Part shown: in pieces, positions 9,578 to 46,310 of the stretch
Layout: every line of letters starts with the position of its first letter
Numbering within the stretch: position 1 is the first letter of the stretch
NCBI GenBank assembly: GCA_030647205.1
Contig: JAUSJO010000005.1
Location: 138,523-202,522 of the forward strand
DNA: 64,000 nt
From: a bacterium
GTDB lineage: Bacteria > Patescibacteriota > CPR2 > UBA1875 > JAJYID01
Reading direction: 5' to 3'
Notes under the pieces: model-generated
The model's input: the letters and a program-made list of their open reading frames with translations, nothing else
Database searches by the model: none
Told to the model about the DNA's origin: nothing
Made by a program: the position numbers and the translations under genes

Positions 9578-10255
9578 ATGGATAGAATAAAAGATTTTGA
9601 CGTTAAAAATATGAAAAAAGTTCCCGATATAAAATCAGGGGATACTGTTCGTGTTCACACAAAAATTAAAGAAGGCAGCAAAGAGAGAATTCAAATTTTT
9701 GAAGGCGTTGTAATAAAGAAACAGGGTGGAAACAATGTCGGTGCTTCTATCACGGTTCGCAAAATGTCTTATGGCATTGGCGTAGAAAGAACATTTCTCA
9801 TGCACTCGCCATTACTTGAGAAAATTCAAGTTGTGAAAAGGGCAAGAGTACGAAGAGCAAACATCGGATACCTGCGGAATTTGACAGGTAAGTCAGCAAA
9901 ACTAAGAGAAAAGCAGTTTGATGCATTAGCCGTGAACGTGAAGGAAGAGGAACTTGCTCCTGCTGATCAGGCAGAGATAGATGAGCCGGTTGAAATCTCT
10001 GAAGATGTTTTAGCTCAGGCTGATACAGTGAGCGCGGAAGATGTTGCAAAAAGAGAAGAAAAAGAAGCCAAAGTTGAAGATACGGGTCCGGTTGCGGAGG
10101 ACGAGCAGGAAGCGCCCGAAGAAGAGATAGAAGAAGGCGTAGAGAAGGCAGAGAAAGACCTTGAGCATGGTAAAAGTACTGAAGGTGAACAGGCAGAGAA
10201 ATCTGAAGAAGATGCGGAGCCTGCAGAAAAAGAAGAAGAAACACCGGAAGCATAA
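9578..10255 (+). CDS. rplS: Ribosomal protein L19 with an acidic C-terminal extension
   Basis: GDTVRVH...[12 protein letters not shown]...[13 protein letters not shown] core, then about 100 aa of E/A-rich tail. Confidence 0.88.
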
Positions 10256-10317: not shown

Positions 10318-10625
10318 GTCATTCCGACCGATACCACGTTAGTGGAAAGTGGAGGAATCCCTTTCCCTTGTCATTCCCGCGGAGGCGGGAATCCAGCCTT
10401 TCTTTAAATAATTTCCACTTTTTTAGAAAAAGTAGAGCAAAAATCGCGGCTTAGACGGCCTCTCAAAGTATAACTCAAAACTTCTCTCAAATTTGAAAAA
10501 TGACAACAAGCCGATTCCGGAAGTCATCTTTTCAAAAGTTCGTTCAGCTTTTCGTTCTCTTTTCGAGCCGATAGCCGCAAAGAGAGGCTTCTTTTCAAAA
10601 ACCATGCCAGAGGAGAGAGTGGAAA
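10318..10625 (+). repeat. Copy 3 of the mosaic intergenic repeat
   Basis: gtcattccgacc...ggaggaatccc, gtcattcccgcggaggcgggaatccag, ccacttttttagaaaaagtagagcaaaaatcgcggcttagacgg, tttgaaaaatgacaacaagccgattccggaag... The last 3 blocks match copy 2 and copy 5, and the first 2 blocks match copy 4. Confidence 0.85.
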
Positions 10626-12771: not shown

Positions 12772-14301
12772 ATGGAGAATAAAATGCAAGCAAAGTTTAC
12801 ACAGGCGATCAACCAGATTTGCGACGAGAAAAACCTTTCTCGTGATGTTGTAATGGAAACAGTTAAGGCGGCACTGGCAAGCGCCTATAAAAAAGACTAC
12901 GGATCAAAAGATCAGGAAGTCAGAGTTGAAATAGATGAAGAAAGCGGAGCAATCCAAGTTTATGTTATAAAAGAAGTCGTCGATGAAGTTGAAGACAAAA
13001 TGCTTCAGATGAGCGTAGTTGACGCAAACAAAATCAAAAAAGGCGCAAAAGTTGGTGATACGGTTGAAATCCTGGATATTCCGGCAGATTTCGGCAGAAT
13101 TGCAGCTCAAACTGCAAAACAGGTGATAATCCAGAGAATTCGAGAAGCTGAACGTGATATGGTCTTTGAAGAGTTTAAAGATAAAGAAGGCGACATTATA
13201 AATGCGGTTGTTCAAAGAGTTGAGGGCGACACTGTAATCGTAGATCTTGGAAAAGCCACCGGAGTTTTATATAGAACCGAGCAAATGGCCGGAGAACATT
13301 ATTATACTGGTCAGAGACTGAAGGTTTTTGTTGTAAGAGTTGAAAGTGCCACAAGAGGTCCGCAGATAGTTCTTTCAAGGTCTCATCCGGATATGATTAG
13401 AAAACTTTTTGAAATGGAAGTACCGGAGATACTGGCAGGAACAATCGAGATCAAGTCAGTCGCTCGTGAAGGCGGCGAGAGAACAAAAATAGCCGTTTAT
13501 ACTGAAACAGCAGGCATCGATCCGGTTGGCGCGCTCGTTGGGCAAAGAGGCTCAAGGGTCCAGTCGGTTATGAGCGAAATTGGTGAAGAGAAAATTGATA
13601 TAATCCTTTGGGATCCTGATATTAAAACCTACATTATCAATGCTCTTTCACCGGCGAAAGTGATAGAAGTTGAGATAGACGAAAAAGAGAAGAAAGCAAC
13701 CGTGAAGGTTCCTGAGGATCAGCTATCTCTTGCAATCGGTAAAAAGGGTCAAAATGTCCGTCTTGCAGCTAAGCTTACTGGTTGGAACGTAGATATTGCA
13801 GGTACGGATGATGCAGGTATTGAGGGCATCCAAGCTGCGGCTGCTCCTGTAGAAACCAAGAAGGCGGCGGATCTAGAAGATGCGATTATCAAGAATATAG
13901 AGTCGCAAGAGTCGGCTGAGGTTGAGACGGAAGAAAAACCCGCTGATGATCAGCCAGCAGTCGAAGAGGAGCCTGTGAAAGAAGACAAGCCAGTCACAGA
14001 AGAAGCTAGTGCAGATTTAGACAGTAAACAAGAAACGGAAGATGATCTAGTTGCTGAGATTGGCGGAGAAGAAAAAGAAGTTGAGGCGCCAAAAATTATA
14101 AAAGATGAGAGAAAACAGATTGATGATGCACCAGAGACTCCTTATGCGGGAGAGTCGGTTGCCGGAAATGCACTAAAAGCTACAGAAGAAGAGAATAAAG
14201 AAGTTAAAGTTGAAAAAGCAGAAGAACCGGATGGTCCAAGCATTGAAGAGGTCTTAGAAGAAGAGGAAGAGGAAAACACAAAGGCGCAGCAAGCAAAGTA
14301 A
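12772..14301 (+). CDS. nusA: Transcription termination/antitermination factor NusA with an acidic C-terminal tail
   Basis: NusA N-terminal, S1 and KH1/KH2 regions (ILDIPADFGRIAAQTAKQVIIQRIREAERD; LAIGKKGQNVRLAAKLTGW). An alternative start is the ATG at 12784. Confidence 0.9.
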   Translation: MENKMQAKFTQAINQICDEKNLSRDVVMETVKAALASAYKKDYGSKDQEVRVEIDEESGAIQVYVIKEVVDEVEDKMLQMSVVDANKIKKGAKVGDTVEILDIPADFGRIAAQTAKQVIIQRIREAERDMVFEEFKDKEGDIINAVVQRVEGDTVIVDLGKATGVLYRTEQMAGEHYYTGQRLKVFVVRVESATRGPQIVLSRSHPDMIRKLFEMEVPEILAGTIEIKSVAREGGERTKIAVYTETAGIDPVGALVGQRGSRVQSVMSEIGEEKIDIILWDPDIKTYIINALSPAKVIEVEIDEKEKKATVKVPEDQLSLAIGKKGQNVRLAAKLTGWNVDIAGTDDAGIEGIQAAAAPVETKKAADLEDAIIKNIESQESAEVETEEKPADDQPAVEEEPVKEDKPVTEEASADLDSKQETEDDLVAEIGGEEKEVEAPKIIKDERKQIDDAPETPYAGESVAGNALKATEEENKEVKVEKAEEPDGPSIEEVLEEEEEENTKAQQAK

Positions 14302-14342
14302 GTATGTCCCGTAGAGACGGGATAAGCAAGGAAGGGGGAAAC

Positions 14343-16883
14343 ATGCAGGAATTTAATTTATTCGGCAGGTTTACAGGCAACGCCAAGCAATGTCTTTTGA
14401 ACGCGCAAAAGATTGCAAAGAAAAAGAACTCAGATATAGATACCGATGATATCTTGGTTGGGATATACCTGGTCACTGATTCTGTCGGTTCAAGACTTTT
14501 AAAAAGTGTTGGTTTTGAGAGTGATATTTCTGCTTATCCGTCAGTTCAGGAAAGTCTGGCAAATGCAAGGGAAGGCGGGAGTAATGTAGTTACGCTTACA
14601 GAATCTGCCAAAACATCTCTCGAAGTTGCCATGGGTCTCGGCAAAAGCTATCAGTCAAACTATATTGGCACTGAGCATATTTTAAGAGCGCTGCTTATGG
14701 GCAAGAAAACAAAGGCCTATGAAGTTTTGAAAAACGACAATATTCAGATCGTTTCGCTCACAAGCGAGCTTGATAAGTTTTTGCAGAGAGGCTCGGGCGA
14801 CAATATGGATATGTACAGCGATGATTTCGCTCAGGACAGTCCTATGGGTATACATAGGGATTTTGCACAAACGAGAGCAGGAAATGATAGTTCTAAAATA
14901 TTTGAAAGCTACAGCGTAGACTTTACCGAAAAAGCAAAGAAAAAAGAGTTCGATCCGATAATCGGCCGTGATAAGGAAATCGCGCGCGTTATATCTATTT
15001 TAAATCGAAGGACAAAAAATAATCCGGTCTTAATCGGCGAACCCGGCGTAGGGAAAACTGCTCTGGTTGAGGGTTTGGCTCAACGCATAGTTTCCGGAAA
15101 CGTGCCGGAGCAACTCTCTGGTAAAAAGATTTTGATGCTTGATATGGCAAATGTCATAGCCGGCACAAAATATCGAGGTGAGTTCGAGGAGCGTTTAAAG
15201 AAAATTGTTGAGGCGCTGAGAGAGAACAATAATATTATTCTGTTTATCGATGAGCTTCATACCATAGTTGGCGCCGGTGCTGCAGAAGGCGCGATAGATG
15301 CGGCAAATATCCTAAAGCCCACTCTTTCAAGGGGCGAAATCCAGGTTATAGGTGCAACGACATTTGATGATTACAGAAAATATATAGAAAAGGATGCTGC
15401 GCTTGAGAGGCGTTTCCAGCCGGTGACTTTAGCCGAGCCGACACCTGCAGAAACCATCGCGATACTCAAAGGCGTAAGGCCGAACTTTGAAGAGTATCAC
15501 AAGGTTAAAATTACTGATGAGTCGATAGAGGCAGCAGTAAAAATGTCGAAAAGATATATTTCAGATAGATTTTTACCTGATAAGGCTATTGACCTGATTG
15601 ACGAGGCAGCAAGTCTTTTGAAAATCAAAAAAGGTAAGAGTCCTTCAAAAACTTTGAAAGATTATGCAAAGGATCTCAAGAAAGTTATTCAAAAGAAAGA
15701 AGAGTCTGTGATAGCTGCGAAATATATCATGGCGGCTGAGTACAAACAGAAAGAAGAACTCCTTGAGGCAAAGATAAGAAATCTCAAGAAAATCACAAAA
15801 GACTACCACGAGCCGGAAATCACAGCGGAAAGCATTGCGGAAGTTATTTCTATTTCTACCGGTGTACCTGTAACTCGCTTGATCAAAAAAGAAAGCGAGA
15901 GCCTTCTAAATATGGAGAAAAACCTCAAAAAAAGAATTATAGGTCAAGATGAAGCGATCAATGAAATCTCCCGTGCGATAAGACGCTCAAGGACCGGTAT
16001 TTCAAACGAAAAAAGGCCCATTGGTACATTCATATTTCTTGGTCCGACCGGTGTCGGTAAAACAGAACTTGCCAAAGCTTTGGCTGCTGAAATGTTCAAC
16101 TCAGAAGATATGCTTGTGAAGCTTGATATGAGTGAGTTTATGGAAAAGCATAATGTGGCTCGGCTTGTTGGCGCGCCGGCAGGATATGTTGGATTTGAGG
16201 AAGGCGGACAACTAACCGAGATTGTCCGCAGAAAACCTTACTCTGTAATTCTTCTTGATGAGATAGAGAAGGCGCACTCTGATGTCTTCAATATGTTTTT
16301 GCAAATTTTGGAAGATGGTCATCTGACAGACGCAAAAGGCATAAAGGTAGACTTTAGAAATACGATTATCATTATGACTTCAAATATTGGTGCTGACAAA
16401 ATGTTTAAAACAGCGAAGCTCGGATTTAGCGCCGAAAATTCAACAGAAGAAAAAGAGTTTGAGTCTCTTCACAAGAAAATTTCAGAGGAAGTAATGGAAA
16501 ACGTGAAGACGCAGTTCAGACCCGAGTTTATAAACCGTGTTGATAAAATAATCGTCTTTAAGGCTCTGTCAAAGATTGACGTCAAAAAGATTGTAGGTCT
16601 TCAACTGAGAGAGTTACAGGATAGGTTAGATGAAAAGCATATCACCATCAAAGTGTCAGAAAGTGCCAAGAAGTTTCTCATGGAAAAGGGCTATGATATC
16701 GAAAACGGCGCAAGGCCGATGCGAAGAGCTATTGAAAACTATATCGAGTCGCCTTTGGCCGAAGGTATGCTCTCCGGTGAGTTTAACGAAGGTGATCTAA
16801 TATCTGTGATGAAAATGGAAGAAAATCTCCAGTTCTATGTTCTGCAAATAAAAGCGGATAAGAGGAAAATAAACAGTAAATAA
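14343..16883 (+). CDS. clpC: ClpC-like AAA+ chaperone ATPase (Clp_N, two AAA modules, short middle domain)
   Basis: Walker [10 protein letters not shown] and GPTGVGKTE, Clp N-domain repeats, an inter-domain linker of only about 80 aa (ClpC-like rather than ClpB-like), and RBS ggaaggggga before the ATG at 14343. Confidence 0.88.
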
Positions 16884-16889
16884 CTCTTT

Positions 16890-17222
16890 GTCATTCCGAC
16901 CGATTTCCTGAAAGGACGAGCGGAGGAATCCCTTTCCCCGTATGTCATTCCCGCGGAGGCGGGAATCCAGACTTTAAAATACTCTATCTACTTTTTTAGA
17001 AAAAGTAGAATCAAAAATCCCCGACTAGCACTATGAAATAGATAAAACTAATAAAAATTTATCATTCAAAACAGCAACCACTCCGTTTAATACTGCTTTT
17101 GTCCTTCGGAACATTCTAAATTTTTAAGTTTTATCCACTATTTCTCCGTGATGTCGGGAGAGAACAAAAATCACGCCGAGAAGAACCTCATTCCGTCATC
17201 CTGAGGCACGAAGGATCTCTCC
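16890..17222 (+). repeat. Copy 4 of the mosaic intergenic repeat
   Basis: gtcattccgaccgatttcctgaaaggacgagcggaggaatccc, gtcattcccgcggaggcgggaatccag, ctacttttttagaaaaagtagaatcaaaaatcc, and a tail ttctccgtgatgtcggga...aaaaatcacgccg...gtcatcctgaggcacgaaggatct that is shared with copies 1 and 2. Confidence 0.85.
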
Positions 17223-23768: not shown

Positions 23769-26369
23769 CTAAGGCTTTACGGTAACATGAATTGTCTGTG
23801 ACTGTGTGCTTTTCGAAGCCTTGTCTTTCACTGTTGCATATAATGTGTGCTCGCCAACACTTCCAAGTGGCACATTTGCAGTATAACCATTGCCATTTGG
23901 CATAGCGGAAGCTTCATAACTTGTACCATTATCAACTGTTACTGTAACTTTATCGATACCGGCAGCAGCCTCGGCATTTATATTCACAACAACAGGAGTC
24001 TCAACATTATCACCTTCTGCCGGAGATGTGATACTGACTGTTGGCGCAGGTTTATTGATATCAGCGCAGTTGTCTTGTTCGGTTGGAATAGTTGTATCGC
24101 CAGCCACAAATCCATTGGCACTTGCCCATGCGGCTATTGGAGCGAACCATCTTGAGTAAGCTGGGTCTCCTTGAGGTATTTCAGCGGTGAGAGCATTTTT
24201 AGTAATGGTGGTAATTTGTGCCGGCGGGCAACTATCATTAACCAGTTTGCCTGTGGCCGGATTTACCTTGTATTCACTCCCGTCGGTGCCTAAAGGAATC
24301 TTGTACCAGCTTGGGAAAATATCAGTACGGGTTTGTTTGGAAGTAGCGGTAGGTTTTTTGCCTGTTACGGCGTCCAGTGTCACACTTTTGATACCGGAAG
24401 GCCGTGAAAACTGCTCAACTTTTGAGCCTGCAAGGGCACTCGTCATAAAGTCATGCCATATTGGAGCAGCAGCGATAGATCCGCCGGCGCTAGACATTGG
24501 TGTGCCGTCATTATTTCCGGCCCATACTCCGGCAACGAGCGATGGGGTATAGCCCATAGTCCATGCGTCTTTGTAGCTGTCGGTAGTACCGGTTTTTGCG
24601 GCAACGGGTCTGCCTTTTAGTGTCAGAGGTCCACCTGTACCAAATACCCTTGCTCTTGAAGCATCGTCCGAGAGTATGTTACTCATAATGTATGCCACCT
24701 GAGCATCCAAAACTCTTTTGCCAGGTTTTTCTTTGTATTCATCCAGAGTTTTACCGTTTGAGTCTTCAATTTTTGTAAACCAAGTTTGATCTTTTTTTAC
24801 TCCGCCATTTGCGAATACTCCGTAAGCTCCTGTCATATCCAGAAGTTTTACCTCGCCGGCACCCAGAACGAGTGATAGTCCATACTGGCTCGGGTCATTT
24901 AGTGTGGTTATACCCATATCATGGGCTGTTTTGATGGAGTTGCTCACGCCGCCTATATATAGAGCCTTAACCGCAGGTATGTTCTCTGATTGCTGAAGAG
25001 CCGATCTCATCGACATCGGTCCCTGGAATCCTCCGTTGTAGTTTCTGGGTACATAGCCGCCACCGAAGTCAGTTCGTACATCAAAGAAAGTGCTTCCAGC
25101 GCCCCAGTTTTCGCCTTTCAATATAGTAGAATATGCAAACGGTTTAAATGATGACCCCGGTTGTCGGTTGGCGATTGCCACATTCACATTTCCGTCAATA
25201 TTTTCATCAAAGAAGTCCCGGCTTCCGACCATGGCCAAGATTTGCCCTGTTTTCGGATCCATCGCAACCAGCGAGGCATTTGACGCTTTATATCTTCCTT
25301 TGTTTTTATCAACATTAGTTGCTACAGCTGCTTCTGCCATTTTCTGTTTTTCTATATCTAGTGTTGTGTAAACTTTAAGCCCGCCGGTATTCACGGTATT
25401 TTCGCCGTATTTTTCTATCAGCTGCTCTTTGACATACATGACAAAGTGGGGGGCAGTGATATTCCCATAAACATTTCCAGAGAAAGCAAGCTGCTCTTTC
25501 TTTGCGGCCTCAGCCTGGTCTTTTGTAATGTATTTCTGTTCGGCCATGAGATCTAGTATCATATCTTTTCGTTTCATCAACTCATCTTTGTGTTGACCGT
25601 ATGGAGAGTAGTATGTTGGTGCATTTGGGAGCGCAGCGAGTGTTGCCGCCTCCGCTAGGGTTAGATTTTTTGCGTCTTTGTTGAAATAAGTTTTTGAGGC
25701 TACTTGTATGCCGTAAGCGTTTGAGCCATAAGGTATTTCGTTCAAATACATCTTTAAAATGTCGTCTTTGGAGTACATTTGTTCAATCATCACGGAAAGC
25801 ATGAACTCTTTAATCTTTCTGGAAAATGATTTTTCATTAGTAAGAATTGCGTTCTTTACAAATTGCTGTGTGATGGTGCTGCCACCCTGACCTTTTTCAC
25901 GATGAACAACGTCATAAACTATACTTCCAACAATTCTCTTAAAGTCGAAACCATGATGTTTATAAAAACCCTTATCTTCGACTGCAACCGTGGCATCTTT
26001 GGCACTTTGTGGGATGTCTTTCATGTCGACAAGTATGCGGTTTTCATTTCCATGAACTTCATAGAGGATTTTACCGTTTCTATCAAATATCTGAGTTGAT
26101 TGAGCTGCAACTTTACTGTTTATTTTCGATGGAGAAGGTAGGTCTTTCGCATACCATGCGGCAAGAAGGATCATTAAACCCATGAAAACCCCAAAGGCAA
26201 TGCCGATCTTTTTCCAGCCGGATTTTGTAAAGAAAAGATTATGAAGAAACTCCTTTGAGCCGGCAACTAGGCCGTATTTCTTAAAGGGGTTTATCTTCTT
26301 TGATTTTCCGGATTTTCCTGAGTAGTTGCTTGCTGGCCGTCTTCTTTTTGTGTATCTTCGTTTAGCCAT
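23769..26369 (-). CDS. Class A penicillin-binding protein (bifunctional glycosyltransferase/transpeptidase) with a C-terminal Ig-like extension
   Basis: N-terminal TM, GT51 motifs (EDKGFYKHHGFD, GGSTITQQFVKN), transpeptidase SxxK/SxN/KTG (GSSFKP, KTGTTD), and about 120 extra C-terminal residues. Confidence 0.9.
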   Translation of the reverse strand: MAKRRYTKRRRPASNYSGKSGKSKKINPFKKYGLVAGSKEFLHNLFFTKSGWKKIGIAFGVFMGLMILLAAWYAKDLPSPSKINSKVAAQSTQIFDRNGKILYEVHGNENRILVDMKDIPQSAKDATVAVEDKGFYKHHGFDFKRIVGSIVYDVVHREKGQGGSTITQQFVKNAILTNEKSFSRKIKEFMLSVMIEQMYSKDDILKMYLNEIPYGSNAYGIQVASKTYFNKDAKNLTLAEAATLAALPNAPTYYSPYGQHKDELMKRKDMILDLMAEQKYITKDQAEAAKKEQLAFSGNVYGNITAPHFVMYVKEQLIEKYGENTVNTGGLKVYTTLDIEKQKMAEAAVATNVDKNKGRYKASNASLVAMDPKTGQILAMVGSRDFFDENIDGNVNVAIANRQPGSSFKPFAYSTILKGENWGAGSTFFDVRTDFGGGYVPRNYNGGFQGPMSMRSALQQSENIPAVKALYIGGVSNSIKTAHDMGITTLNDPSQYGLSLVLGAGEVKLLDMTGAYGVFANGGVKKDQTWFTKIEDSNGKTLDEYKEKPGKRVLDAQVAYIMSNILSDDASRARVFGTGGPLTLKGRPVAAKTGTTDSYKDAWTMGYTPSLVAGVWAGNNDGTPMSSAGGSIAAAPIWHDFMTSALAGSKVEQFSRPSGIKSVTLDAVTGKKPTATSKQTRTDIFPSWYKIPLGTDGSEYKVNPATGKLVNDSCPPAQITTITKNALTAEIPQGDPAYSRWFAPIAAWASANGFVAGDTTIPTEQDNCADINKPAPTVSITSPAEGDNVETPVVVNINAEAAAGIDKVTVTVDNGTSYEASAMPNGNGYTANVPLGSVGEHTLYATVKDKASKSTQSQTIHVTVKP

Positions 26370-27670: not shown

Positions 27671-29821
27671 ATGAATAGCCCTATAACGCTTAAAACTACA
27701 GTTTCGCAGCTTCAGGGGGTGGGCTCGGTATATCAAAAGAAACTGGAAAAACTTCACGTAGACACAGTTGAAGACTTGCTTTTGTATTTGCCGAGAACTT
27801 GGGAAGACTTTTCTAAGATTACGGAAATTGCCAAAGTCAGACCGCCGGGAACTTACTGTATACAGGGAAATATCTGGAGTATCGGTAACAAACGCTCGGT
27901 AAGAAGGCGGATGTCGATAACCGAGGCTATCATTGCCGATAAAACCGGAACCATGAAAGCAGTCTGGTTCAACCAGCCATTTCTCATAAAAAATATGAAG
28001 CAGGGTGATGAGATTTTACTTGCCGGAAGAGTAGAAAATGAATATGGCAAAATTCTCATGAAGTCGCCGGCGTATGAGAAAAAGTCCGATGAACAGACGC
28101 ATTTGGGAAAGATAGTCCCGACTTATAAAGAAACTGATGGCCTATCCTCTCGCTGGCTCAGATATCAGATAACTAAGCTGGTGAAGATCATTTACTCTTT
28201 CAAAGAGTACTTACCGGCTGATGTGATAAAAAACCAAAGTTTGATTAGCTACTCTGCCATGATTCGCCAGCTTCACTTCCCCGATAACTCATATCAGCTG
28301 GAAAAAGCGATAGATCGTCTAAACTTCGACGAGATGTTCCTCTTACAAGTTGCAGTCCAAAATCAGAGGAAGACACTCGATAAAAACCGAGCAATCTCAG
28401 TCCAGTTTAATGAGGAGTTGTCAAAAGAATTCGTCAAAAGCCTAGGATTTACGCTTACCACAGCTCAGAAAAAATCCATTTGGGAGATAATCAAAGATCT
28501 TGAAAAGCCCACTCCGATGAATAGACTTCTTGAGGGTGATGTTGGGTCAGGGAAAACCGTAGTGTCGGCAATGGCAACTTTGATGGTAGCTCGTAATGGA
28601 TTTCAAACGGTATTTTTGGCGCCCACAGAGATTCTCGCCAAACAGCACTATGAATCTTTGAAGAAAATGCTGGAACCATTTGGTGTAAGAGTTGCCTTAC
28701 TTACTGGCAAAAAAGCCCTCCTTCCTTCCGTCATTCCCGCCCCACCTTCTGTCATTCCCGCGGAGGCGGGAATCCAGTCATCACTGAAAGAGGAAAACGT
28801 GAAATCAAAAAAATCAGTGGAAGCCGAGGTTTTAAAACAGGCCAAAGAAGGGGAGATACAGGTTCTTGTCGGTACTCACGCAGTACTTAAAGAAGACATA
28901 GACTTTTGGAGCTTGGCATTCGTGATAGTTGATGAACAGCATAGATTTGGAGTAGGACAGCGCGCTAAATTACGCCAAAAATCAGGGTCAGATGGAACGA
29001 TGCCGCACTTCCTTTCAATGTCAGCAACACCAATCCCGCGGACTCTGACACTTTCGGTTTACGGTGATCTGGATATCTCGGTGATTGACGAGATGCCGCC
29101 GGGGAGGAAGAAAGTAGCGACATTCGTAATTCCACCAGAAAAGAAAGAAGATTCATATGAATTCATTCGCCAGACTGTGAAAAAGGGGAGACAGGTTTTT
29201 GTCATCTGTCCGCTGATAGATGACTCAGAAAATATGGAGCTTCGAAGCGTCACCGCAGAGTATGAGAGATTATCCAGAATGGTATTTACCGATCTCAAAA
29301 TCGCCATGATTCACGGGAAGATGAGACCGGAGGAAAAAGAAAGAATCATGAGCGACTTTGCGACCGGCAAGACAAACATCCTTGTTTCGACATCTTTGGT
29401 TGAGGTTGGTGTCGATGTGCCAAATGCGACTATCATGATTATCGAGGGCGCTGATAGATTTGGTTTGGCACAACTGCATCAGTTCCGCGGAAGAGTTGGT
29501 AGGGGAAAGTACCAGTCATATTGTTTCCTTTTCACCGACAACCAGTCTGAAACTGTTCAGAAAAGACTCGATGCGATAACTAAAACAAATGATGGGTTTA
29601 AAATTGCTGAGAAAGATCTGGAAATAAGAGGACCGGGTGAAGTTCTCGGCGAACGCCAGCACGGTCTGCCGGATATCAAGACTCAGAATCTAATGAATGT
29701 AGAGCTGATAAAAAGAACAAAAACCGAAGCCAAAAACTTCCTGAAGAAAAATGAAGTAAATGATTTCCCGTTACTCGCAGAGAAAATCTCTAAATATGAT
29801 GGGGTAGCAAATCTGGAGTAG
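27671..29821 (+). CDS. recG: ATP-dependent DNA helicase RecG, carrying an in-frame repeat insertion
   Basis: Wedge domain, helicase motifs (GDVGSGKT, DEQHRFG, SATPIPRT), and a C-terminal domain. About 25 extra residues (LLPSVIPAPPSVIPAEAGIQS...) are encoded by 28718-28780. Confidence 0.92.
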   Translation: MNSPITLKTTVSQLQGVGSVYQKKLEKLHVDTVEDLLLYLPRTWEDFSKITEIAKVRPPGTYCIQGNIWSIGNKRSVRRRMSITEAIIADKTGTMKAVWFNQPFLIKNMKQGDEILLAGRVENEYGKILMKSPAYEKKSDEQTHLGKIVPTYKETDGLSSRWLRYQITKLVKIIYSFKEYLPADVIKNQSLISYSAMIRQLHFPDNSYQLEKAIDRLNFDEMFLLQVAVQNQRKTLDKNRAISVQFNEELSKEFVKSLGFTLTTAQKKSIWEIIKDLEKPTPMNRLLEGDVGSGKTVVSAMATLMVARNGFQTVFLAPTEILAKQHYESLKKMLEPFGVRVALLTGKKALLPSVIPAPPSVIPAEAGIQSSLKEENVKSKKSVEAEVLKQAKEGEIQVLVGTHAVLKEDIDFWSLAFVIVDEQHRFGVGQRAKLRQKSGSDGTMPHFLSMSATPIPRTLTLSVYGDLDISVIDEMPPGRKKVATFVIPPEKKEDSYEFIRQTVKKGRQVFVICPLIDDSENMELRSVTAEYERLSRMVFTDLKIAMIHGKMRPEEKERIMSDFATGKTNILVSTSLVEVGVDVPNATIMIIEGADRFGLAQLHQFRGRVGRGKYQSYCFLFTDNQSETVQKRLDAITKTNDGFKIAEKDLEIRGPGEVLGERQHGLPDIKTQNLMNVELIKRTKTEAKNFLKKNEVNDFPLLAEKISKYDGVANLE
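28718..28780 (+). repeat. Fragment of the dispersed palindromic repeat inserted in frame within recG
   Basis: ccgtcattcccgccccaccttctgtcattcccgcggaggcgggaatccag. The 27-mer gtcattcccgcggaggcgggaatccag is identical to the intergenic copies at 10377-10403 and 16947-16973. Confidence 0.85.
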
Positions 29822-46012: not shown

Positions 46013-46310
46013 GTCATTCTGGTTTGGTCAGAATCGTATTTGTCATCCTGATGTACGAAGGATCTCATCCTCTCATTCCCACTTTCATCTGTCATTCCCG
46101 CGGAGACGGGAACCCAGTTTTGAATTATTTCCACTTTTTTAGAAAAAGTGGAGCAAAAATCGCGGCTTAGACGGTCTCTCAAAGTATCGTCTGGTTCGCT
46201 CTCTCATCTTTAAAAAAATTAACTCGCTTCTCTCAAACAAAATTCTTTTTAAAGGTTCGTTCACTCCCAGACTTTCTTTTCGAGCCGATAGCCGCAAGAG
46301 ATGCCCTAGA
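46013..46310 (+). repeat. Copy 5 of the mosaic intergenic repeat
   Basis: gtcattctggtttggtcagaat, gtcatcctgatgtacgaaggatct, gtcattcccgcggagacgggaacccag, ccacttttttagaaaaagtggagcaaaaatcgcggcttagacgg, and a module ending ttttcgagccgatagccgcaagag as in copy 3. Confidence 0.85.

Follow-up and report, generated by a model that had tools for sequence, protein, structure and literature searches.

The recG Gene and Its Inserted Segment

The window analyzed here (the whole 64-kb stretch of DNA) carries on its + strand an intact recG CDS (27671..29821 in the ORF list, 716 aa) that contains a repeat-derived insertion in its reading frame. The product matches the Pfam families RecG_wedge (2.7e-27), DEAD, Helicase_C, and RecG_dom3_C as well as the RecG equivalogs of NCBIfam (NF008168 at 843 bits), and every helicase motif is still intact. 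Codon-register comparison with four recG alleles that have an empty site (P0002, P0004, P0011, and P0017) delimited the inserted segment as 28715..28807 (+), that is, 93 nt or 31 codons, corresponding to residues 349-379 (ALLPSVIPAPPSVIPAEAGIQSSLKEENVKS). Because both junctions fall in A-rich lysine codons, its ends can be placed only to within a few bases. An earlier note on this DNA had located the insert between ALLTGKK and IQVLVGTHAVL, and the translation of the insert (LLPSVIPAPPSVIPAEAGIQS) is indeed flanked by these two segments.

The insert has several parts. A pyrimidine-rich leader, CTCCTTCCTTCC (28718..28729, +), of the same kind as those at the intergenic copies of the repeat and at the copy in P0064, stands ahead of a partial unit, GTCATTCCCGC (28730..28740, +), which has only the tag and left arm of the hairpin and which, with the C on its 5′ side, forms the tag CGTC (28729-28732). 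A second leader, CCACCTTCT (28742-28750, +), is followed by a full CGTC-1 REP/NTS unit (28751..28777, +) that contains the 27-mer GTCATTCCCGCGGAGGCGGGAATCCAG, an exact match to intergenic copies. In this full unit the tag is (T)GTC, the 8-bp stem is formed by ATTCCCGC (28754-28761) and GCGGGAAT (28766-28773) around the loop GGAG, the tail is CCAG, and the translation is VIPAEAGIQ. Both the 27-mer lying within recG without a break of frame and the partial second unit had been recognized in the earlier note, and both were confirmed. The partial unit sits 21 nt upstream of the full one and belongs to a direct repeat of 21 nt (ccttcYgtcattcccgc), of which it is one copy; an alternative 9-bp stem is possible between it and the right arm (28765-28773). 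The 3′ part of the insert, SSLKEENVKS (28778..28807, +), is unconserved among the alleles that are filled. Five of the six frames of the repeat unit are open, having no stop codon.

The DNA hairpin of the full unit has a predicted energy of -10.3 kcal/mol (z = -4.5). The whole 93-nt insert folds no better than shuffles (z = -1.8), and a MITE-like fold of the entire segment was rejected; the internal 8-bp stem is the sole inverted repeat, and the terminal inverted repeats that characterize MITEs are absent from the insert. A search for a target-site duplication at the A-rich junctions of all four filled alleles gave no unambiguous one. Runs of CAAAAAA do flank the recG insert; their spacing of 98 nt is not divisible by three. 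Since the junction repeats are not only short but also imperfect and out of register, we claim no target-site duplication.

Copies of the Repeat in the Window and in Other Genomes

The 27-mer is present in four copies in the window, all on the + strand and three of them intergenic, and no chance match was obtained in 100 shuffles. Two intergenic copies are identical to that in recG, as previously noted, with their positions corrected from 10377 and 16947 to 10370..10396 (+) and 16944..16970 (+). The first of these lies after a second type of hairpin (10318-10360), which begins 63 nt past the stop of the ORF 9578..10255, and before a terminator-like hairpin; the other lies after a hairpin (16890-16930) that begins 7 nt past the stop of the ORF 14304..16883. 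The hairpin clusters of intergenic copies begin 7-63 nt after stop codons. The remaining copy (46091..46117, +) has 2 mismatches; ahead of it, at 46072, stands a partial unit in degenerate form, CTCATTCCCAC, which gives the partial-plus-full layout also seen in recG. The earlier note had proposed a scan for further in-frame copies, and besides recG no 27-mer or other recognized GTCAT-hairpin unit was found within any CDS of the window; there was also no match to an Rfam family across its whole length. A scan for GTCWY plus a hairpin was noisy (20 and 11 matches per strand vs. ~6 and 8 in shuffles), and tight hairpins alone were used.

The repeat is not a local family but a pan-bacterial element, the exact 27-mer being present in at least 12 phyla. 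The same 27 bases, unchanged, are in frame in unrelated enzymes, namely in the exonuclease domain of a Pol I (locus L023) and in a carboxyltransferase (locus L029). Of 133 exact copies, drawn from many phyla, 54% have a C and 41% a T directly ahead of GTC. C or T thus occupies position -1 in 95% of them, and positions -8 to -1 are G-poor. The tag of the full unit in recG and of the intergenic copies is TGTC and not the canonical CGTC, which is that of the partial unit.

Relationship to Known Repeat Families

Members of the CGTC-1 REP family have an 8-bp stem starting with AT, a 4-nt loop, and a short unpaired CCA tail (Di Nocera, 2013; PMC3733652). All of these are found in the recG unit, and the repeat is, as expected for the family, multi-copy, chiefly intergenic, and near the 3′ ends of upstream ORFs. 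The CGTC-1 family comprises Neisseria dRS3 and R. conorii RPE-6, and RPE-4 has been equated with the CGTC-4 REPs (Di Nocera, 2013; PMC3733652). By that published assignment the recG unit would belong to the same family as RPE-6. The comparison with Rickettsia palindromic elements made in the earlier note was therefore apt, and closer than its author knew. In both cases a hairpin repeat is in frame in conserved genes, is translated, and is placed where the fold tolerates it. As with RPEs, the recG insertion is in frame in the gene of a conserved protein, is missing from orthologs, and occupies what the structural comparisons below indicate to be a surface position that the fold can accommodate. 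The hosts differ, Rickettsia in the one case and a Patescibacteria/WS5-type organism in the other. Classical elements of the RPE-1 type measure ~100-150 bp and have a conserved peptide, whereas the conserved unit here is ~27-45 nt inside a 93-nt insert, and a search of NCBIfam, including its RPE models, with the insert peptide (35 aa) gave no match at E ≤ 1.

Compared with the NTS consensus CGTCATTCCCGCGMAVGCGGGAATCYRG (Chenal et al., 2025; PMC11893778), the full unit agrees at 26 of 28 positions. The two exceptions are position 1, where it has T and the consensus has C, and the M position, in its loop, where it has G and NTS defines A or C. As the NTS search in that study tolerated one mismatch, the recG unit is one mismatch beyond it. 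The oriented flanks of NTS are present (GTC-ATTCCCGC...GCGGGAAT-C-CAG), with one orientation for all copies in the window. With Neisseria dRS3/NTS the repeat shares the oriented GTCAT flank, the C after the palindrome, and the clusters downstream of genes, but only 2% of N. meningitidis NTS are intragenic and their in-frame translation is not discussed (PMC11893778); Patescibacteria are not mentioned in the text of that paper. The REP/BIME elements are alike in having a short GC-rich hairpin with an orienting tag, multiple copies downstream of genes, and a proposed partner protein acting at the ssDNA level. However, their tag is GTAG and not (C/T)GTC, and their partners are RAYT transposases, whereas the partner proposed for CGTC hairpins is a GIY-YIG nuclease. 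We know of no association of CGTC REPs with a RAYT (IS200/IS605 Y1).

GTAG and CGTC REPs within genes have been described in uvrA/B, uvrD, polA, recBCD, and dnaE, where they encode 20-30 residues and are often dimers or grouped units, and in the recB of two Xanthomonas species a REP is at about the same site (Di Nocera, 2013; PMC3733652). The same pattern is seen in recG here and in the Pol I of L023. The gene list of that survey, which drew on 5 phyla, none of them a candidate phylum, has 0 occurrences of recG, and the survey did not extend to allele polymorphism or recombination mosaics (PMC3733652). The recG case is a clean new example of an already known event, not a new phenomenon, and it extends the record of CGTC/NTS hairpins translated as protein to one more gene, recG, and to a host lineage of the Patescibacteria/WS5 type.

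Position of the Insert in RecG

The solved structure of T. maritima RecG (1GM5) matches the 716-aa protein with E = 9.5e-158, and the alignment is interrupted from query residues 347 to 387. At this site T. maritima RecG has 8 residues, which form a strand-to-helix connection, vs. 39 in the insert-bearing protein. The statement that RecG homologs have a short loop here holds, as does that of the extra length of this RecG, although the excess is 31 residues relative to orthologs with an empty site and not about 25. In an AlphaFold2 model the insert is an unstructured, low-confidence loop at a strand/helix junction of the first RecA-like domain, the domain in which it had been expected, while the flanking fold is confident; pLDDT is <50 at residues 357-377 (the mean for the model is 85.5), and the insert has no secondary structure. 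The insert is thus predicted to be a disordered surface loop of 31 residues, and the protein is probably still functional, with the added peptide presumably having no role of its own.

Filled and Empty Alleles of recG

Of the 16 closest RecG orthologs (76-88% identical), 13 have an empty site that reads LTG-KTKKSE..., as do the distant P0019 and P0023. A homologous insert occupies this site in three relatives (P0006, P0012, and P0013). The alignment of orthologs that the earlier note had suggested therefore shows an insert that most close relatives lack but that is not private to this lineage. The four filled alleles, with that of the window (WIN) included, are spread over three or four sub-clades. 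They can be aligned across the leader, partial unit, and core; the leader codons GCC-ATY-CTY-CCY-TCY are in register and common to all four, and the unusual partial left unit is common to WIN, P0013, and P0006, decayed in the latter two and absent in P0012. A single origin is favored because the four alleles align through all three of these parts. Extra residues at the insert site occur in 18 of 120 RecG proteins; 14 of these, apart from the filled alleles, have other residues there, and none of the other relatives among the 120 has an NTS-type segment at the site. Further CGTC hairpins were found in the same and other RecG loops; P0050, for instance, has two different CGTC hairpins in the same loop in opposite orientations.

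Among the filled alleles the 3′ part of the insert differs at 40-69% of nucleotides vs. 3-5% for the hairpin core, and 8-9 of 9 core codons are identical vs. a gene-wide fraction of 0.39-0.43 (P = 2e-4 to 6e-3). Judged from these alignments, DNA-level conservation of the hairpin core exceeds the neutral expectation.

Elsewhere in the gene, the nearest relative of each filled allele is an empty allele. The amino-acid distance between the two is 5-8%, and it rises to 24-28% over the 50 columns flanking the site. For the pair P0012 and P0017 the nucleotide difference is 0% over ~45 codons; it then climbs to 42-49% immediately before the insert, reaches up to 67% immediately behind it, and drops back to 2-4%, a sequence pattern that clearly points to a recombination mosaic. 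This pair has a second divergent tract, at columns 415-440, without a hairpin. For the pair of WIN and P0002, faster local evolution after insertion may be an alternative to recombination. The flanks of the filled alleles are no closer to each other than background, and the donors in these recombination events would for this reason be unsampled. The idea that the filled alleles have imported flanks in common was rejected, as they do not cluster in the flanks.

SsnA-Type Nucleases

The NTS/SRM motif is recognized as ssDNA, and cleaved on one strand only, by the GIY-YIG nuclease SsnA, which is encoded by a gene that is often motif-flanked and whose product is a single-domain protein of ~94 aa (cd10448); in Neisseria, NTS and SsnA modulate the integration of transforming DNA, and genes adjacent to dRS3 are more diverse (Chenal et al., 2025; PMC11893778). 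We identified a 93-aa single-domain GIY-YIG protein (Pfam 8e-17) in a relative (locus L003), with Y17 and E64 at positions mutated in Nm SsnA. Its gene has GTCAT-hairpins on either side in inverted orientation, an arrangement that is the NTS-ssnA-NTS layout of Neisseria. SsnA-like GIY-YIG proteins are common in Patescibacteria, many of their genes being on very short contigs. No ssnA-like gene was found in the 64-kb window by tblastn, and an SsnA-like ORF was within 8 kb of only 1 of 120 loci that hold the 27-mer, a co-location that is uninformative.

Origin of the Insert

We consider it very probable that 28715-28807 is a repetitive CGTC-1/NTS element that became part of the recG frame by one old insertion and whose alleles have been exchanged by recombination. 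The element would be a CGTC-1-type repetitive extragenic palindrome (NTS, Ssn-related motif), a short piece of selfish or repetitive DNA whose leader is rich in pyrimidines, whose left half is duplicated, and whose tail varies. In helicase domain 1 it landed in the loop that follows the VALLTG strand and, because it did so in frame and five of its six frames are open, it is read through and adds 31 residues. The insertion probably occurred once, in an ancestor of this WS5-like Patescibacteria clade, with filled and empty alleles since exchanged among lineages by homologous recombination, and the partial unit at a distance of 21 nt may have arisen by slippage at the hairpin. More tentatively, the core might be constant at the DNA level as the ssDNA recognition site of an SsnA-type GIY-YIG nuclease, and such a nuclease, or its ssDNA processes, might spread or maintain the repeats.

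It is also conceivable that the same RecG loop was struck separately in four lineages, either through sequence targeting or as the sole tolerant loop. At greater distance this loop has been struck more than once, as evidenced by P0050 and by the 18 of 120 RecG proteins with extra residues; a recent arrival would account for a near-perfect 27-mer beside an otherwise saturated insert; and the sequences AGT AAA ACA GC at the 5′ junction and AGT AAG TCA GC near the 3′ end in P0013 are readable as a lineage-specific duplication. However, separate events are difficult to reconcile with the partial left unit that WIN, P0013, and P0006 have in common and with the leader codons being in register in all four alleles, and the P0012/P0017 mosaic shows recombination moving the segment, leading us to regard repeated insertion as unlikely. 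We think it quite unlikely that the hairpin has been kept in recG for a role in DNA or RNA, such as an mRNA structure or an SsnA site limiting or directing the recombination of incoming recG DNA. Such a role would be in keeping with the conservation of the core, the peak of divergence around the insert, the effect of NTS and SsnA on transforming DNA in Neisseria (PMC11893778), and the reported enrichment of intragenic REPs in DNA repair genes (PMC3733652). Yet most close relatives do without the hairpin, the second left arm has decayed in P0006, and a family-wide constraint on the element explains the conserved core equally well; moreover, the tract at columns 415-440 in P0012/P0017 is divergent without a hairpin, and there is no terminator-like T-run 3′ of the recG hairpin.

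A further alternative is an ancient loop of RecG that most relatives have since lost and whose likeness to the repeat is secondary. That four alleles over three or four sub-clades carry the segment is compatible with such a loop, but the outgroup comparison contradicts it, the segment being missing in P0019, P0023, and T. maritima RecG. In addition, all 27 of 27 core positions agree with intergenic copies of its own genome and with those from at least 12 phyla, and the conservation extends to synonymous positions, for which selection on the protein cannot account; we consider an ancestral protein feature very improbable. As the source is a MAG, and repeats break or confuse assemblies, a misjoining of the repeat into recG by the metagenome assembler has to be weighed as well. 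This is barely credible given that the reading frame is kept, that homologous inserts come from three independent samples and assemblers (JGI 3300007351, ENA ERZ27233564, and ERZ27236914), and that an identical protein is available at NCBI from a 279,812-bp contig.

Wider Significance

A far-reaching reading is that the intragenic NTS hairpin, more than a passenger, is a kept SsnA recognition site, at which single-stranded recG DNA, whether incoming or at forks, is cut and the end-points of recombination are thereby set, and that CGTC/NTS repeats with SsnA are the long-missing system that mobilizes or maintains RPE-type in-frame insertions across bacteria, candidate phyla included. We put this forward as speculation that is more probably wrong than right by a wide measure. 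If true, it would explain both the hyper-divergent tract centered on the insert and the conservation of the core at the DNA level.

The recG insert links three literatures that are seldom connected, those on Rickettsia RPEs, reportedly described in 2000, on CGTC REPs (2013), and on the ssDNA nuclease SsnA (2025). Filled and empty recG alleles on near-identical backbones offer a natural system in which to study the spread of the hairpin, the role of SsnA, and the tolerance of a RecA-like domain loop. Our search for papers containing peptide signatures of the repeat found none, and VIPAEAGIQ, SFPRRRES, LDSRLRGND, and WIPASAGMT could serve as annotation flags for repeat-derived segments. The tryptic peptide from the recG insert itself is ALLPSVIPAPPSVIPAEAGIQSSLK.

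An In-Frame Hairpin Insertion in recG

The recG ORF of the window (27671..29821, 716 residues), whose product has the Pfam domains RecG_wedge, DEAD (in two separate stretches), Helicase_C and RecG_dom3_C and scores above the NCBIfam RecG equivalog cut-offs, contains the 27-mer GTCATTCCCGCGGAGGCGGGAATCCAG at 28751-28777 (+ strand). Identical copies lie between genes at 10370-10396 and 16944-16970, and an intergenic copy with two mismatches at 46091-46117; by chance, no 27-mer matches are expected (100 dinucleotide-preserving shuffles). As DNA, the recG hairpin folds at -10.3 kcal/mol (z = -4.5). An earlier note had claimed an in-frame, RPE-like insertion of a palindromic repeat in recG at 28718-28780, and direct checking found the sequence there as described, including a partial second unit, the 11-mer GTCATTCCCGC, which recurs at 28730-28740, 21 nt upstream of its occurrence in the full unit. 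The identity of the copies elsewhere also held, although the positions given for them (10377 and 16947) were a few bases off.

Searching 5.8 billion proteins gave a graded series of RecG relatives, as well as a protein identical to the window RecG from an NCBI MAG (279,812-bp contig). Thirteen of the 16 closest relatives (76-88% identical) have no residues at the insertion site, and these empty alleles, together with the more distant P0019 and P0023, read LTG-KTKKSERNEIL there. In codon register the window recG has 31 codons more than the empty alleles (28715-28807, residues 349-379, ALLPSVIPAPPSVIPAEAGIQSSLKEENVKS), rather than the approximately 25 residues suggested earlier. The alignment to the solved Thermotoga maritima RecG (1GM5) splits at the insert, with query residues 348-386 (39 residues) opposite residues 455-462 (8 residues), a stretch bounded by the VALLIGA strand and the helix leading to VVIGTHAL. 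An AlphaFold2 model (119 sequences in the alignment) was confident overall (mean pLDDT 85.5, pTM 0.77), with residues 345-379 lacking secondary structure between a strand (341-344) and a helix (380-393), and with pLDDT below 50 at residues 357-377. Based on the empty orthologs, the 1GM5 split and the model, we therefore conclude that the segment is an in-frame insertion in the strand-to-helix connection of the first RecA-like domain, where it is predicted to form a disordered loop, and we infer that RecG with the insert stays active. The earlier reading of a tolerated, RPE-like repeat insertion in a surface loop, as opposed to a standard RecG feature, is supported. The scan for further in-frame copies proposed with it found neither the 27-mer nor any other recognised GTCAT-hairpin unit inside other genes of the 64-kb window.

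Identity and Distribution of the Repeat

A full-text literature search with the 11-mer led to the Neisseria Transformation Sequence (NTS), defined as CGTCATTCCCGCGMAVGCGGGAATCYRG (Chenal et al., 2025, PMC11893778), with which the window unit agrees at 26 of 28 positions. NTS and the wider "Ssn-related motifs" are present in many bacteria, and only 2% of NTS in N. meningitidis are intragenic (PMC11893778); a search of the text of that paper gave no mention of in-frame or intragenic copies, of Patescibacteria or of "candidate." Such hairpins had already been classed as "CGTC-tagged REPs" (Di Nocera et al., 2013, PMC3733652), and the window unit has exactly the anatomy described there for CGTC-1, i.e., an 8-bp stem starting AT, a 4-nt loop and a CCA tail. 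As these authors also equate CGTC-1 with Neisseria dRS3 and R. conorii RPE-6 (and CGTC-4 with RPE-4), the RPE-likeness of the recG insert exceeds analogy: by published assignment, the repeat belongs to the same element superfamily as Rickettsia RPE. In-frame intragenic CGTC REPs were reported in several species, notably in DNA synthesis/repair genes (uvrA/B, uvrD, polA, recBCD, dnaE); recG is absent from the genes listed (PMC3733652). The recG insert is a further instance of documented CGTC/NTS hairpin behavior and not lineage-private, with the gene and the host group being new.

An exact scan for the 27-mer, using one genome per species, matched at least 120 stretches. The matches listed come from at least a dozen phyla, including Patescibacteria (Paceibacterota, Roizman-, Morani-, Nomura- and Taylorbacteria), Pseudomonadota, Planctomycetota, Chloroflexota, Cloacimonadota, Omnitrophota and Bdellovibrionota. 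Immediately before GTC, 54% of 133 copies have C and 41% have T, and the 8 bases upstream of the unit are G-poor; the window copies are preceded by the same pyrimidine leader. The unit is open in five of six frames (VIPAEAGIQ, SFPRRRES, HSRGGGNP, LDSRLRGND, WIPASAGM). Among the loci retrieved, exact copies occur in frame in the 3'-5' exonuclease domain of DNA polymerase I of another Patescibacterium (locus L023, 324-350, SFPRRRES frame), a carboxyltransferase domain in Usitatibacter (L029, 5689-5715, antisense WIPASAGMT frame), a transglutaminase-like protein (L084, 1301-1327) and an O-antigen-ligase-like protein (L015, 1503-1529). Within RecG itself, hairpin-derived peptides were found at three or four recurrent sites among 120 relatives; at the DNA level, the loop that holds the window insert is occupied in relative P0050 by two different, oppositely oriented CGTC hairpins, and an NTS-type unit, with leader CCCTCCTCT, lies elsewhere in the P0064 gene.

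Relatives P0013 and P0014 have a different, non-GTCAT insertion of 19-20 residues (GAQRVAPSAGEKERRGTHPL / GVQRVAPSAGRAGGGCHPL) in the C-terminal helicase domain, after "MNDFA" (approximately residue 564 of the window RecG), which looks repeat-derived. Multiple copies were also seen: three exact 27-mers in tandem, ~45 nt apart, at L093 (2760-2877), and pairs of oppositely oriented copies separated by 20-70 nt at L045, L064, L072 and L078, resembling the described CGTC REP dimers.

History of the recG Insert

The site is also filled in three relatives: P0006 ("candidate division WS5 bacterium," 33 extra codons, with the partial unit but with different sequence in place of the second left arm), P0012 (ENA ERZ27233564, 25 extra codons, a single unit) and P0013 (ENA ERZ27236914, 33 extra codons, with a decayed partial unit). 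That the four inserts can be aligned through leader codons, partial unit and core favors a single origin. Outside the site each filled allele is nearest to an empty one (amino acid distances of 6% for the window RecG and P0002, 5% for P0012 and P0017, and 8% for P0006 and P0011); over the 50 columns around the site, these pairs reach 24-28%. Compared codon by codon, P0012 and P0017 are identical in nucleotide sequence for ~45 codons. Their divergence climbs to 42-49% just upstream of the insert, is as high as 67% in the first comparison interval beyond it and is back at 2-4% by columns 395-400, with synonymous and non-synonymous changes both raised in the divergent tract. Across the two recG loci (L004 and L006), 0% stretches alternate with 40-50% stretches at columns ~320-390 and 415-440. 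recG in this pair is clearly a recombination mosaic, from which we conclude that lineages have exchanged the filled/empty state. Filled alleles show no particular similarity to one another in their flanks, and therefore the donors are unsampled. For the window recG and P0002, background divergence is too high to tell import from local acceleration.

Comparison of the filled alleles shows saturation (40-69% difference) in the 3' part of the insert and a near-invariant 27-mer, in which 8-9 of 9 codons are identical; over the whole gene the proportion of identical codons is 0.39-0.43 (P = 2e-4 to 6e-3). The conserved synonymous sites rule out selection on the protein as the cause. Either the constraint acts on the DNA (or RNA) element or the core is repeatedly homogenized. 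This DNA-level conservation and the filled/empty polymorphism within the mosaic are the two additions of value to the documented behavior.

SsnA-Like GIY-YIG Proteins

SsnA is a 94-residue single-domain GIY-YIG nuclease that binds the motif as ssDNA, on one strand only, and cleaves a few bases upstream of it; the motif is often found on both sides of ssnA genes, and SsnA involvement in hairpin spread was raised only as a hypothesis (PMC11893778). In the WS5 relative (L003), a 93-residue single-domain GIY-YIG protein (Pfam 8.4e-17), with Y17 and E64 at the positions mutated in SsnA by Chenal et al. (PMC11893778), is encoded ~1.1 kb downstream of recG. Its gene is bracketed (13234-13640) by two GTCAT-hairpins, a forward GTCATTCCGATTGA... 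hairpin immediately upstream and an inverted GTCATTTCGACCGA... hairpin immediately downstream, an IS-like layout. Patescibacteria have an abundance of SsnA-like homologs, most of them 91-99 residues long. For one (P0130), the listed longest contig equals that of RecG relative P0016 in length (635,771 bp), and the two may be on one contig. Many are on contigs of only 0.4-2 kb, which suggests that their loci are repeat-flanked or multi-copy, breaking assemblies. The 64-kb window itself has no SsnA-like gene. A further reading, to which we give a low probability, is that the recG copy serves SsnA as a functional site and so shapes recombination at recG, with SsnA being the partner so far missing for RPE-type insertions.

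Intergenic Spacers of the Window

The intergenic 27-mers lie within composite spacers that start 7-63 nt past the upstream stop codon and contain several different GTCAT-starting hairpins (GTCATTCCGACCGAT...GGAGGAATCCC, GTCATCCTGAGGTACGAAGGATCT and GTCATTCTGG...CCAGAAT), then a terminator-like hairpin. GTCAT-tagged hairpins of at least three further families, all intergenic and on the + strand, were noted (GTCATCCTGAGGYACGAAGGATCT and the GTCATTCTGG...CCAGAAT and GTCATTCCGACCGAT...GGAGGAATCCC types), with hairpins at 278-329, 10318-10360, 16890-16930, 17196-17218 and 46013-46065. Usually directly 3' of such hairpins is a ~170-nt intergenic module, present in four copies upstream of unrelated genes (338-520, 2191-2369, 10403-10580 and 46119-46297) and ordered as CCACTTTTTTAGAAAAAGTGGAG (a terminator-like hairpin), AAAAATCGCGRCTTAGACGG..CTCTCAAAGTAT, TCTCTCAAATTTGAAAAA and TCTTTTCGARCCGATAGCCGCAA. 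The module, which has no Rfam match, could represent either a terminator/promoter cassette that these genes share or a small mobile element in its own right. No Rfam family scored at its gathering threshold or above over the window (1-64000), so that neither a tRNA nor an rRNA or riboswitch was detected. Almost every long ORF is on the + strand, which is G-rich, GC skew being positive in 31 of 32 2-kb windows (the exception being 24001-26000).
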